From: Myxococcales bacterium
GTDB lineage: Bacteria > Myxococcota_A > UBA9042 > JABWCM01 > BTVJ01
Length of the DNA: 64,000 nucleotides
Assembly (NCBI GenBank): GCA_045863395.1
Contig: BTVJ01000013.1
Location: 32,001-96,000 of the forward strand
Direction of reading: 5' to 3'
In this document: piece by piece, positions 28,914 through 32,131 of the stretch
Position numbering within the stretch: the first letter of the stretch is position 1
Layout: every line of letters starts with the position of its first letter
Translations under genes and position numbers: made by a program
Notes under the pieces: generated by a model
Seen by the model: the letters and a program-made list of their open reading frames with translations, nothing else
Told to the model about the DNA's origin: nothing
The model's database searches: none

Positions 28914-29363
28914 ATGTTCTACACGTTCATCGTCATCGTGCACATCGGCGTGTGCGCCTTCCTGATCCTCACCGTGCTGCTCCAGGCCGGCAAGGGCGGC
29001 GGCATGGGGGCGCTCGGCGGCGGCGGCAGCGCCACCGTCTTCGGCGGCCGCGGCGCGAGCACCTTCCTCAGCAAGCTCACGTCTGCCTCTGCGGCGACGT
29101 TCATGGTGCTGGCCATCGTCCTCGCGCGTATGAGCCTCGACACCAGCGCCATCGACGTCGACAAGGCCAACGTCACCGAGACGGTCGGCGAAGGCGCAGA
29201 AGGCGCAGCGGGAGCGGCACCAGCAGAGGGGGCGCCCGCCGAGGGAGCACCCGCCGAGGCGCCGACCCCCGCGCCCACCGAGGCGGCCCCGACCCCCGCG
29301 CCCACCGAGGCGGCCCCGACCCTCGCGCCCACCGAGGCGGCGCCCACGCCTCCGTCCGAGTAG
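28914..29363 (+). CDS. secG: Preprotein translocase subunit SecG with Ala/Pro/Thr-rich tail
   Basis: VLLQAGKGGGMG...FGGRGA..FLSKLT; conserved position after tpiA. Confidence 0.93.
   Translation: MFYTFIVIVHIGVCAFLILTVLLQAGKGGGMGALGGGGSATVFGGRGASTFLSKLTSASAATFMVLAIVLARMSLDTSAIDVDKANVTETVGEGAEGAAGAAPAEGAPAEGAPAEAPTPAPTEAAPTPAPTEAAPTLAPTEAAPTPPSE
29262..29342 (+). repeat. 27-bp tandem repeat x3 in the secG tail (PTPAPTEAA)
   Basis: CCGACCCCCGCGCCCACCGAGGCGGCC repeated with minor variants. Confidence 0.85.
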
Positions 29364-29431
29364 GGCGCCTCATGCCGCACCGCGGCGCATCCCCGACGCT
29401 GCGCCGGTGGCCTGCACGATGAGAGTTTCTG

Positions 29432-29460
29432 TTGACAAGGCGCATGATGCGACCTATAAA
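29432..29460 (+). promoter_or_regulatory. Near-consensus sigma70 promoter of tRNA-Leu
   Basis: TTGACA-17 bp-TATAAA. Confidence 0.85.
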
Positions 29461-29485
29461 CCGGGCACTTCCGGGCGTCCGGACT

Positions 29486-29573
29486 GCGAGAATGGTGAAA
29501 TTGGTAGACACGCAAGGTTGAGGGCCTTGTGGCCATTGCGGCCGTGGGGGTTCGAGTCCCCCTTCTCGCACCA
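29486..29573 (+). tRNA. tRNA-Leu (anticodon GAG)
   Basis: Acceptor GCGAGAA/TTCTCGC + A-CCA; D-loop AAATTGGTAGA; anticodon stem CAAGG/CCTTG with loop TTGAGGG; long variable arm; T-arm GGGGG-TTCGAGT-CCCCC. Confidence 0.96.
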
Positions 29574-30003
29574 GCTCCTCCTCTCCATCTCCCTCTCTCT
29601 GTCACTCCTCGCGTGCTCCCAGAGCCCGAGCGAGTCGCTGCAGGCGACGTTCCAGGCTGCCGGCGACGGCGACTTCGACGCGTTCCGGGACGGCTTCACG
29701 CGCCGCTCCGGGAACTTCCTGGCGGGCCTCGACGCGGCCGCCGCACAGGGTCACGCTGCGTTCTCCTTCCACGCCATGAGGGGCACACCCACCATCCTGG
29801 CGGAGCAGCCCATCGGCCAGGTGGTTGTCGTTCAGGCCCGGCTAGGCAACGTCACGCTGCCGTTCCCCATGGTGGAGGAGCGCGGGCGGTGGCGCATCGA
29901 CCTGCGCACCGCGGTCGAGCTGTGGTACCGCTTCGGGTCCGGCCCCTTTGCGCCGGCGCTCCCCGACTCGCCTGGACGCTTCGGGGGGCCGGAGGTACAG
30001 TAG
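29536..30003 (+). CDS. Small lipoprotein, NTF2/DUF4878-like, paralogue 1; start uncertain and overlapping the tRNA
   Basis: Lipobox LLAC (Cys at 29614), SPSES...GDFDAFRDGFTRRS...MVEERGRWRID; in-frame starts only at TTG 29518/29527/29536 or ATG/GTG 29419/29407. Confidence 0.7.
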   Translation: MRPWGFESPFSHQLLLSISLSLSLLACSQSPSESLQATFQAAGDGDFDAFRDGFTRRSGNFLAGLDAAAAQGHAAFSFHAMRGTPTILAEQPIGQVVVVQARLGNVTLPFPMVEERGRWRIDLRTAVELWYRFGSGPFAPALPDSPGRFGGPEVQ

Positions 30004-30008
30004 GCGCC

Positions 30009-30404
30009 GTGGGCCTGCGACCAACCATCTACGCGCTCCTGCTCGTGCTCCTCGTGTCGGCGTGCGCCGAGACGCCCTCCGAGGCGTACGTCCGCGCTCG
30101 CACCACCGCCGAGGCCAAGGACGAGGACGCCTTCCTCGCGCACATGACCAGGCGCTCCGCCGCGCTGCTCCGCTCCCTGGAGGCGACGCGCAAGGACACG
30201 GCCGGTCGCCTTGCGTGGCTGTCGTCGCCCTTCGACGTCCACGCCTTCGGCGAGGTCGTCTCGGAGGAGCGCTTCGACGAGGCGGCGGTGCTCGTCGTGG
30301 AGGGGCGCGGGCGGAGGGAGCGGGTGCTGATGCGCCTGGAGCGCGGGAGCTGGAAGATCGACGCCCTGGAGCTGGCGAGCTTCTGGCGACCCCTGGAGCG
30401 ATAG
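30009..30404 (+). CDS. Small lipoprotein, NTF2/DUF4878-like, paralogue 2
   Basis: GTG start, lipobox VSAC, TPSEAY...DEDAFLAHMTRRS...MRLERGSWKID. Confidence 0.75.
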   Translation: MGLRPTIYALLLVLLVSACAETPSEAYVRARTTAEAKDEDAFLAHMTRRSAALLRSLEATRKDTAGRLAWLSSPFDVHAFGEVVSEERFDEAAVLVVEGRGRRERVLMRLERGSWKIDALELASFWRPLER

Positions 30405-30412
30405 GAGCGCCC

Positions 30413-30823
30413 ATGAAGAAGCTGCTCGTGGTGCTCATCCTGGCGGCGCTGGTCGCTGGCGGCTGGTGGGCGTGGGACCGCTGGTTCCGCGGCGGCTCCC
30501 CCTCCGACGCCTACCGGCGCATGGTCAACGCTGCGCGGCTCGGCGATGAGGACACCTTCCTGGAGGGCTTCACCGAGAAGAGCCGCCCCCTCGTCAAGGC
30601 GCTCATCGCGCTCTCCCGCGACTACGAGGTGGTGCGCGAGGATCCCTACGAGCGCATCGTGCTCTCCGATGTGGTGGGCGAGACGGTGGAGGGGGACCGC
30701 GCGACCATCGTGACGGAGCAGGGCCGCAAGACGCGCGAGATCCGCATGACGAAGGTCGATGGGCGCTGGCAGATAGACGCCTTCGACCTGGACGAGGACT
30801 GGAGCCGCCCGGGCGCCCCGTGA
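30413..30823 (+). CDS. Membrane-anchored NTF2/DUF4878-like protein, paralogue 3
   Basis: AGGAG RBS, N-terminal TM, SPSDAY...DEDTFLEGFTEKS...MTKVDGRWQID. Confidence 0.8.
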   Translation: MKKLLVVLILAALVAGGWWAWDRWFRGGSPSDAYRRMVNAARLGDEDTFLEGFTEKSRPLVKALIALSRDYEVVREDPYERIVLSDVVGETVEGDRATIVTEQGRKTREIRMTKVDGRWQIDAFDLDEDWSRPGAP

Positions 30824-30857: not shown

Positions 30858-31097
30858 ATGGCAGAGGTGCTTCGACGAGTGACCGTGGACCGCATCGAGG
30901 GGAGCATTGCGGTGCTCCTCGACGGCGACTCCCAGGTGGACGTGCCGGTCGCGTGGCTCCCGAGCGGGACCGGCGAGGGCGCCGCGCTCACCGTGACCCT
31001 GGCGCTGGACGCCGAGAGCGAGGACGCCCTGCGCGCCCGGATCAAGGCCACGCAGCAGCGCCTGGTGAGCGGCGGCGACGACGAGATCGACCTCTGA
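30858..31097 (+). CDS. DUF3006-like small protein
   Basis: GAGGAGG RBS; TVDRIEGSIAVLL...VPVAWLPSGTGEG pattern. Confidence 0.75.
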   Translation: MAEVLRRVTVDRIEGSIAVLLDGDSQVDVPVAWLPSGTGEGAALTVTLALDAESEDALRARIKATQQRLVSGGDDEIDL

Positions 31098-32131
31098 CCC
31101 TGCGCCTGGTCCAGGCGAGCCCGCTGCACCGGCTCCTGGCGGACGGACCGGCGGACGCACCGCTCCTGGTCACGCGCTTGATGCCCCCGCTGCCCGGGCT
31201 CGGGGTCCAAAGCGCCCTGGAGGTGGCAAGCGACTTCGCCGCGCGACGGCCATCGCACCCCGCGCTCCCGCCAATCCTCACCGTTCGAGCCGGCCCAGGC
31301 GGCAGCGCCGAGTGGGTGGAGCCCATGCCCCACGGGGTCAGCCTCGCCGCGTTGCTCGAGGACGGCCCCCTGCCCCCTTCATCGGCGCTCCCCCTGCTGG
31401 GTCGGATCGCTGACGCCCTGGCCGCCATGCACGGTGCGGGCCTCTCCCAGCTCTGCATCTTGCCGGAGCGCGTCGTCATCGGCGCCGGCGGACAGGTCAC
31501 CCTGGTCGGCGCCGGCCTCGTGGACGCCTTGCGGACGCTCTCCCCCGGGATCCGCTTCCCGGGGGCGCAGTGGGAGCACCTGCACCCCGTGCCGGCCCTC
31601 ACTTCCCCGGAGCTCCTCCAGGGCGAGTCGGGCGAGCGGGTGGACGTGTTCGCCCTGGCCGCCCTCGCCTTCCTGTGCCTCACAGGGGGCCTCCCGTTCG
31701 TCGGCGGCGCCCTGGCCGTGTGGCGTGCCAGCCAGAGGGGCGAGGCCAGAGAGGCGAGCGATGTCTGCCCCGCGGTGAGCCGGGCCCTGTCGACGGCGCT
31801 GCGCCAGGGGCTCGGCGCGCACCCGTCACAGCGCCCGGAGAGCCCCCACGCGCTCCTCGACCTCCTGCGCATCGCGGCGGGCTCGCCCCGGGACGCGGCC
31901 GTCCATCTCGGACGACACCACCCGACCTGGTGGGACGCCCGACTCCCCACCGTGTCGGTCGACCCGGGCGACGACCCGTCGGGGAGCCTCCGCACGGCCC
32001 AGGCGGTGCTGGAGCAGCTCCACACCGCGGTGCGGGAGCGCAAGGGAGAGCCCCACCGGTGGCGGGGGCTGGTTCTCCTGGTGGCGGCGCTCCTGCTCCT
32101 CCTGCTCCTGCTGCCGCTGCTCCCCCCGTGA
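31094..32131 (+). CDS. Protein kinase-like pseudokinase with C-terminal TM (start uncertain: CTG 31094, TTG 31178 or ATG 31181)
   Basis: Kinase C-lobe remnants (GVSLAALL.DGPLP, IADALAAMH, SPELL, DVFALA, GLPF, PSQRP) but no HRD or DFG. Confidence 0.65.
   Translation: MTLRLVQASPLHRLLADGPADAPLLVTRLMPPLPGLGVQSALEVASDFAARRPSHPALPPILTVRAGPGGSAEWVEPMPHGVSLAALLEDGPLPPSSALPLLGRIADALAAMHGAGLSQLCILPERVVIGAGGQVTLVGAGLVDALRTLSPGIRFPGAQWEHLHPVPALTSPELLQGESGERVDVFALAALAFLCLTGGLPFVGGALAVWRASQRGEAREASDVCPAVSRALSTALRQGLGAHPSQRPESPHALLDLLRIAAGSPRDAAVHLGRHHPTWWDARLPTVSVDPGDDPSGSLRTAQAVLEQLHTAVRERKGEPHRWRGLVLLVAALLLLLLLLPLLPP

Follow-up and report, generated by a model that had tools for sequence, protein, structure and literature searches.

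A probable translation start inside tRNA-Leu(GAG) for a lipoprotein gene in a Myxococcales bacterium and its relatives

Same-strand overlaps between tRNA genes and protein-coding genes have been described in bacteria for selC (tRNA-Sec), which is nested in or overlaps the 3' end of selB in Alphaproteobacteria, Dyella/Luteibacter and Nitrospirae (Mukai 2021, PMC8124441). The case is presented there as the first nested tRNA in bacteria and, on computational grounds, an either-or between tRNA processing and translation is proposed; there the ORF begins ahead of the tRNA, whose sequence supplies a C-terminal extension or the stop. In animal mitochondria, as summarised in the same paper, tRNA sequence also doubles as coding sequence. 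A second related system is the secG leuU operon of E. coli, in which secG is followed by a tRNA-Leu gene; the joint transcript is reported to be cleaved by RNase E/G and then processed by RNase P (PMC2241853). The locus described here shares with selB-selC the same-strand overlap of tRNA and ORF, a frame that is kept among relatives, a patchy distribution among them, a proposed exclusion between processing and translation, and a computational basis (PMC8124441). It differs in that a housekeeping tRNA would hold the start and the probable ribosome-binding site, and would encode the removable n-region of a functionally unrelated protein. Moreover, the ORF does not generally start upstream and read into the tRNA, since its frame is closed upstream in several lineages (see below). 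Unlike the compact organelle genomes, the host genome measures 8.8 Mb and uses Shine-Dalgarno-led initiation. Within the open-access literature, with subscription journals largely outside the scope, no published account of a bacterial tRNA with a start codon inside it came up. Such a start would be a variant of tRNA-ORF overlap not matched in that literature, the closest published case being tRNA-Sec in the end of selB.

The window (the whole stretch of 64,000 nucleotides that was analysed) belongs to an assembly that is 97% complete. Its gene order around the locus is pgk, tpi (both of which we take to be such from their sequences), secG, tRNA-Leu(GAG), three small paralogues, a DUF3006 gene, a kinase-like gene and hrcA, and all features located below are on the plus strand. 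The upstream neighbour secG (28914..29363; Pfam SecG, E 2e-19) ends in a long Pro/Ala/Glu/Thr repeat built from ~30-nt tandem repeats (29200-29360), where contigs break in all four runs. A putative sigma-70-type promoter can be read from the sequence at 29432..29460, with TTGACA at 29432-29437, a 17-nt spacer and TATAAA at 29455-29460; a strict promoter scan did not pick it up. A TTGAC box is found 25-80 nt 5' of the tRNA in 61/66 class loci, and 29432..29460 is probably the promoter of the tRNA-lipoprotein unit. The tRNA-Leu(GAG) gene itself (29486..29573; ARAGORN; Rfam RF00005, 53.6 bits) has a cloverleaf, a long variable arm, the GAG anticodon, which is also that of E. coli leuU, and an encoded CCA (29571-29573). 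It is the sole credible Leu(GAG) gene in the assembly. ARAGORN makes one more Leu(gag) call, on the minus strand of contig C1 (17763-17853); it was rejected as spurious, as it has no canonical D or T loop and lies over a coding frame. From the single credible copy and the use of CTC (37 codons in three nearby genes), the host presumably needs this tRNA. In E. coli, a Rho-independent terminator follows leuU (PMC2241853), whereas here a scan of the window gave no terminator-like site between the tRNA and the first lipoprotein gene (gene A), and the tRNA has a conserved -35 box of its own. Gene A is followed by lipoprotein B (30009..30404, own GTG start), paralogue C (30413..30823, own ATG) and the DUF3006 gene (30858..31097; Pfam E 7e-14). 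Further downstream, a degenerate gene at 31100-32131 resembles kinases (Pfam Pkinase, E 0.015, which misses the cut-off), and its open frame after 31100 is without a clear nearby start.

The original prediction was that the start and the signal peptide of gene A are embedded in the tRNA gene. Translation of the ORF bears out that 29407-30003 is open through the entire tRNA, with in-frame TTG codons inside it at 29518, 29527 and 29536, with GTG 29407 and ATG 29419 in frame 5' of the -35 box, and with the Cys codon at 29614. Between the tRNA end and this Cys there is indeed no in-frame ATG, GTG or TTG, the first one lying ~200 nt past the tRNA, within the mature domain. The embedding applies to the start and to the n-region, for which the translation gives 16 tRNA-encoded codons (29527..29574), and not to the hydrophobic region and rule-based lipobox (29575..29616, Cys codon 29614-29616), which lie 3' of the tRNA and lead into the mature lipoprotein (29614..30003). 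Given that two of the three frames of tRNA-Leu(GAG) offer an NTG, its presence in frame is weak evidence by itself, and the support for an in-tRNA start comes from the relatives and not from the single locus. Among the 56 ARAGORN calls in the host genome, viewed by eye, no other tRNA has a coding frame whose first start is so far downstream.

Which codon would be used was assessed with word counts and a weight matrix from the host genome, whose assembly contains no 16S gene. Ahead of its starts, no words are commoner than GGAG (493 of 1308) and GAGG (469), and TTG is the first codon in 22 of 332 single-candidate genes. The anticodon arm is purine-rich (29514..29523) and offers a candidate ribosome-binding site with AAGG at 29514-29517 and GAGG, the anticodon plus the next base, at 29520-29523. 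For the candidate TTG 29527 (29527..29529, tRNA position 41-43) the GAGG gap is 3 nt and the AAGG gap 9, each found in 2/332 genes; GAGG 5 nt before the start, the geometry of position 43, occurs in 31/332. By the weight matrix, the upstream context of TTG 29527 is at the 43rd percentile when set against true starts and at the 95th against internal NTGs; on the true-start scale, TTG 29518 is at the 18th percentile and position-43 sites from other genomes are at the 12th-20th. TTG 29527 is thus best-ranked among the candidates and the most likely start of gene A. TTG 29536, the start in the NCBI call (P0069), was rejected, its upstream context being at the 1st percentile of true starts. A predicted anticodon hairpin of 8-9 bp covers the start and the upstream purines in all covering folds but one, and RNA folding gave no significant alternative structure (z -0.17). 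Because this hairpin covers both candidate signals, initiation should be inefficient and may need nascent RNA. As a separate observation, GTG 29529 (position 43), whose GAGG spacing is the better one, does not share the frame of gene A; the frame it opens (29529-30404) has 291 codons and runs to the stop of gene B. The matching frame is closed in genome G002, so it is probably due to chance; it could compete for ribosomes.

Relatives were collected with a mature-domain profile, which matches 104/107 class genomes. Outside the class it matches 29 genomes, all but two with a single match, and 0/6 inspected had a tRNA-Leu nearby. With the close-relative alignment as query, metagenome contigs and genome contigs each yielded a single distant locus. 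The homologous proteins carry the source labels Myxococcota or Deltaproteobacteria, which would place the host there too. The tRNA-Leu(GAG/AAG) locus was gathered from 79 class genomes and scored by rule; a lipobox was detected in 68, which were scored, and 11 were dropped (10 without a lipobox ORF within 400 nt by rule and one without a tRNA call). By eye, and outside the counts, the dropped loci G038, G070 and G072 have own starts, as do G044, G018, G058, G007 and G003, which were viewed later. The junction of tRNA-Leu(GAG) and lipoprotein gene is class-wide. In 5 of the 31 loci with at least 700 nt of flank, secG was found upstream by a single-sequence SecG query, whose misses are not proof of absence. 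Genus g6 (L005, L010) carries at this locus a tRNA-Leu with the anticodon AAG instead of GAG, and AAG is uncommon in bacterial tRNA-Leu. At these two loci and at L085, a terminator-like inverted repeat seen by eye right after the tRNA overlaps signal-peptide codons and could add translation-coupled attenuation.

An alignment of related tRNA-Leu loci had been proposed as the check. With an own start defined as an ATG, GTG or TTG at least 14 codons before the Cys, 50 of the 68 scored genomes have a start downstream of the tRNA and 18 have none, a split that is the same for thresholds of 11-15 codons. In 16 of these 18, the overlap is present: a stop-free frame runs from tRNA position 41 (TTG or ATG) or 43 (GTG), closely following the anticodon, against 7.7 expected (P 1e-5; positions 41/43 and the lipobox rule were defined after data inspection). 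The in-frame codon at position 41 is TTG in G000, G005 and G013 and ATG in G002, and GTG at position 43 is in frame in 12 genomes of families f4, f8, f10 and f16. Counting any start in the tRNA 3' half, the figure is 16 against 9.7 expected (P 7e-4). The own-start genomes, serving as controls, are in frame with position 41/43 in 11/50 cases, against 10.3 expected. When kin are pooled the signal weakens: by genus, 10/12 are in frame (P 0.003; any start, P 0.03), and by family it is not significant (5/7, P 0.17; any start, P 0.45). A start codon at 41/43 is offered by 17 of the 18 tRNAs of the no-own-start set versus 26 of the 50 own-start tRNAs, and in family f7, where 17 of 18 scored tRNAs are without one, all 18 genes have an own start. 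All nine scorable no-own-start genes whose position 41 reads TAG use the position-43 frame, and eight of these are open. What is supported of the originally proposed dual-coding segment is the tRNA 3' half as mRNA start, by frame conservation in relatives; regulatory coupling is no part of that support. Families f4, f8, f10 and f16 each include both states, which would mean several changes of the trait, provided that the families are natural groupings.

Changes in spacer and tRNA length also bear on the frame. In f8, GTG 43 precedes the Cys by 84, 90, 102, 117 or 147 nt. Genus g39 of this family has a tRNA one nucleotide shorter, which puts its T arm and acceptor strand into another reading frame while the start is retained; these tRNAs make a start available in all three frames, and 6/6 database proteins of g39 type have their first codon at 43 and a further 11, 15 or 17 codons past the tRNA, one having just 11 between the tRNA and the Cys. 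Database starts are gene-caller output and show open frames only, and read in this way, 14 of the 20 homologues found with the f8 profile are called from inside the tRNA and six downstream. For the family of the window, the comparison is likewise one of protein records (P0002-P0005): the position-41 frame is preserved in P0002 (66% identity; 24 codons) and P0004 (64%; 22 codons), the window having 15, and downstream starts are called in P0003 (81% identical) and P0005. The position-41 frame is also kept in P0007, P0034 and P0050, with 25, 22 and 19 codons. As a control, the spacers of G029 and G034, of one genus and with an own ATG, differ by a 1-nt indel. At six loci (L074, L059, L020, L018, L123 and L124) the own start lies only 4-11 nt past tRNA position 73, too close for a ribosome-binding site to fit in between; from their layout, these are candidates for near-leaderless translation after tRNA processing. 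The lipoprotein genes at L004, L082, L076 and L002 probably start with CTG or ATC.

The mature part of gene A had been taken as real because of its paralogy to the next two genes, and this is upheld: identity is 30% to B and 27% to C (E 9e-9 each). Lipoprotein A has the hydrophobic region and the lipobox Cys, by a rule-based call and not a dedicated signal-peptide predictor, and this Cys is invariant in a 16-row alignment (cut at the same Cys); the third gene has an N-terminal membrane anchor and no lipobox. The charge of the n-region, which is located only inside the tRNA, is +1/-1 in the window gene and +1 to +5 in relatives. The model of mature A (pLDDT 83.9) aligns best with the NTF2-like structure 3b7c in VIA-align (Z 9.0, rmsd 3.3, 95 aligned), and its atlas neighbours are DUF4878-like (0.87-0.92). 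Foldseek gave no match to this model at E<=0.001, and with the DUF4878 profile (PF12870) gene A gave no match and gene C 13.3 bits (E 0.1) against a cut-off of 24.1. On the modelled structure, an NTF2-like fold is assigned to mature A with confidence. It would thus share fold and size with NTF2-like lipoproteins (DUF4878/DUF4864-like) and, unlike these, has no Pfam match above cut-off and occurs as three tandem paralogues, which we guess to form a periplasmic membrane-anchored trio. The mature domain is under purifying selection in relatives: dN/dS is 0.19, 0.25, 0.40, 0.19 and 0.31 in five congeneric pairs without own starts; for comparison, two pairs with own starts give 0.30 and 0.07, and a pair with one gene of each kind gives 0.21. 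None of these pairs includes the window's own gene. Codon use of gene A is coding-like (GC3 0.91, coding score 0.35), with slightly higher values in its neighbours (0.95-0.96 and 0.42-0.56).

We consider it likely that translation of lipoprotein A starts inside tRNA-Leu(GAG), with TTG 29527 as the candidate codon. The tRNA promoter would drive a single transcript carrying the tRNA and then lipoproteins A, B and C. Translation of A would begin within the tRNA, at TTG 29527 (position 41) here and at ATG 41 or GTG 43 in other lineages, where the purines of the anticodon arm would form the ribosome-binding site; ribosomes would probably reach it while the RNA is still being made, ahead of cloverleaf closure. 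The n-region of the signal peptide would then be encoded by the variable arm, T arm and acceptor strand. In the lipoprotein pathway, the signal peptide, n-region included, is removed from the mature protein. An n-region accepts almost any sequence, so the overlap would be cheap: the tRNA-encoded residues are removed after lipidation and the mature protein pays nothing for them. From the layout, tRNA processing would remove the start, and if the tRNA matures as in the secG leuU operon (PMC2241853), its 3' cleavage would separate the start from the ORF. Each transcript would thus serve one purpose, being either folded and trimmed into a tRNA, with the start lost, or translated, with the tRNA unfolded, and the output of lipoprotein A is likely low. 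The in-tRNA start state probably arises repeatedly through spacer erosion.

Other explanations account for parts of the data. Initiation could occur at a non-canonical codon (CTG, ATC, ATA, ATT or CTC) just 3' of the tRNA, possibly on near-leaderless RNA after tRNA 3' processing. Genomes G001 and G063, with long spacers and non-canonical candidates, have neither a canonical own start nor an in-frame tRNA start and require such a codon, so non-canonical starts do occur in the class. In addition, G004 and G068 have a CTG 19 codons before the Cys with a G-rich stretch upstream, CTG/ATH candidates are present in 12 of the 18 no-own-start genomes, and several own-start genes begin only 4-13 nt past tRNA position 73. 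However, the sole candidate in the window is an ATC 10 codons before the Cys, with no purine-rich site after the tRNA; the six genomes without any CTG/ATH alternative of at least 14 codons are all in frame with a tRNA start (3.0 expected); and the frame link to position 41/43 would be left unexplained, which makes this reading decidedly unlikely for gene A. Another alternative is an upstream start at GTG 29407 or ATG 29419 on secG read-through RNA, crossing the whole tRNA in a selB-selC-like manner. No stop interrupts the frame within the tRNA here or in G002 and G005, proteins P0050 and P0073 are called from an ATG just 5' of the tRNA, and one RNA-run contig covers 29312-30900, although RNA contigs tell nothing on ends, strand or single-transcript status. 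Against this, both codons lie 5' of the -35 box and were rejected as starts (11-12th percentile of true starts, in a stretch scoring as non-coding, -0.31), the signal would be 65-69 residues long, and a stop in the D arm closes the frame in the position-43 lineages, as it is closed upstream in G013. We regard an upstream start as highly improbable.

The two remaining alternatives assume that gene A is damaged or misread. It could have lost its start by deletion and be a recent, untranslated pseudogene in the window's lineage, which would fit the own starts of 50/68 orthologues, the structurally buried in-tRNA start, the GC3 and coding score slightly under those of the neighbours and the lack of an RNA contig over gene A in run X17 (a hole that proves nothing). 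Nevertheless, frame, lipobox and fold are intact, the frame persists, over spacers of different length, in relatives of 64-66% identity, and dN/dS is well under 1 in the five comparable pairs, so a pseudogene is improbable. Downstream starts in orthologues had been expected to imply truncation here; they are the majority state, yet truncation does not follow, since 16 genomes in seven families share an in-tRNA start and the proteins are under purifying selection. An assembly error, or loss of the 5' end at an integration site in the tRNA, is barely credible. The 3' ends of tRNA genes commonly serve as integration sites, but the last 14-30 nt of this one are single-copy in the assembly, with no displaced duplicate of the 3' end, and the junction is shared class-wide, which argues against the integration event initially suggested. 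Misassembly is contradicted by contigs of runs X3, X9 and X6 (two other studies, P3 and P4), which span ~29293-29332 to 30900 across the junction of tRNA and gene A with zero indels.

Returning to a start inside the tRNA, whether the arrangement is put to use is a separate matter. That removal of the start and its exclusion of translation are a selected form of regulation is unlikely, and tolerated compaction would account for repeated gain or loss just as well. A more specific and doubtful proposal is that the anticodon-loop GAG plus G37 (GAGG) constitutes a Shine-Dalgarno sequence for a start 3-5 nt on, captured several times in the class, and that selection has made a switch of the race that the ribosome runs against tRNA folding or processing, with tRNA-processing flux setting the output of the envelope lipoprotein. 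If gene A is translated as proposed, an essential, ordinary tRNA would, in a free-living organism with a large genome, provide a protein gene with its ribosome-binding site, start and first codons. Discarded signal n-regions would, if this is true, be a general reason why such overlaps arise cheaply, and annotation rules that bar overlaps between tRNA and CDS would truncate real genes. The natural variants found in the class (position 41, position 43, own start or none) are suited for tests of the ribosome versus tRNA folding and RNase P/E/Z.
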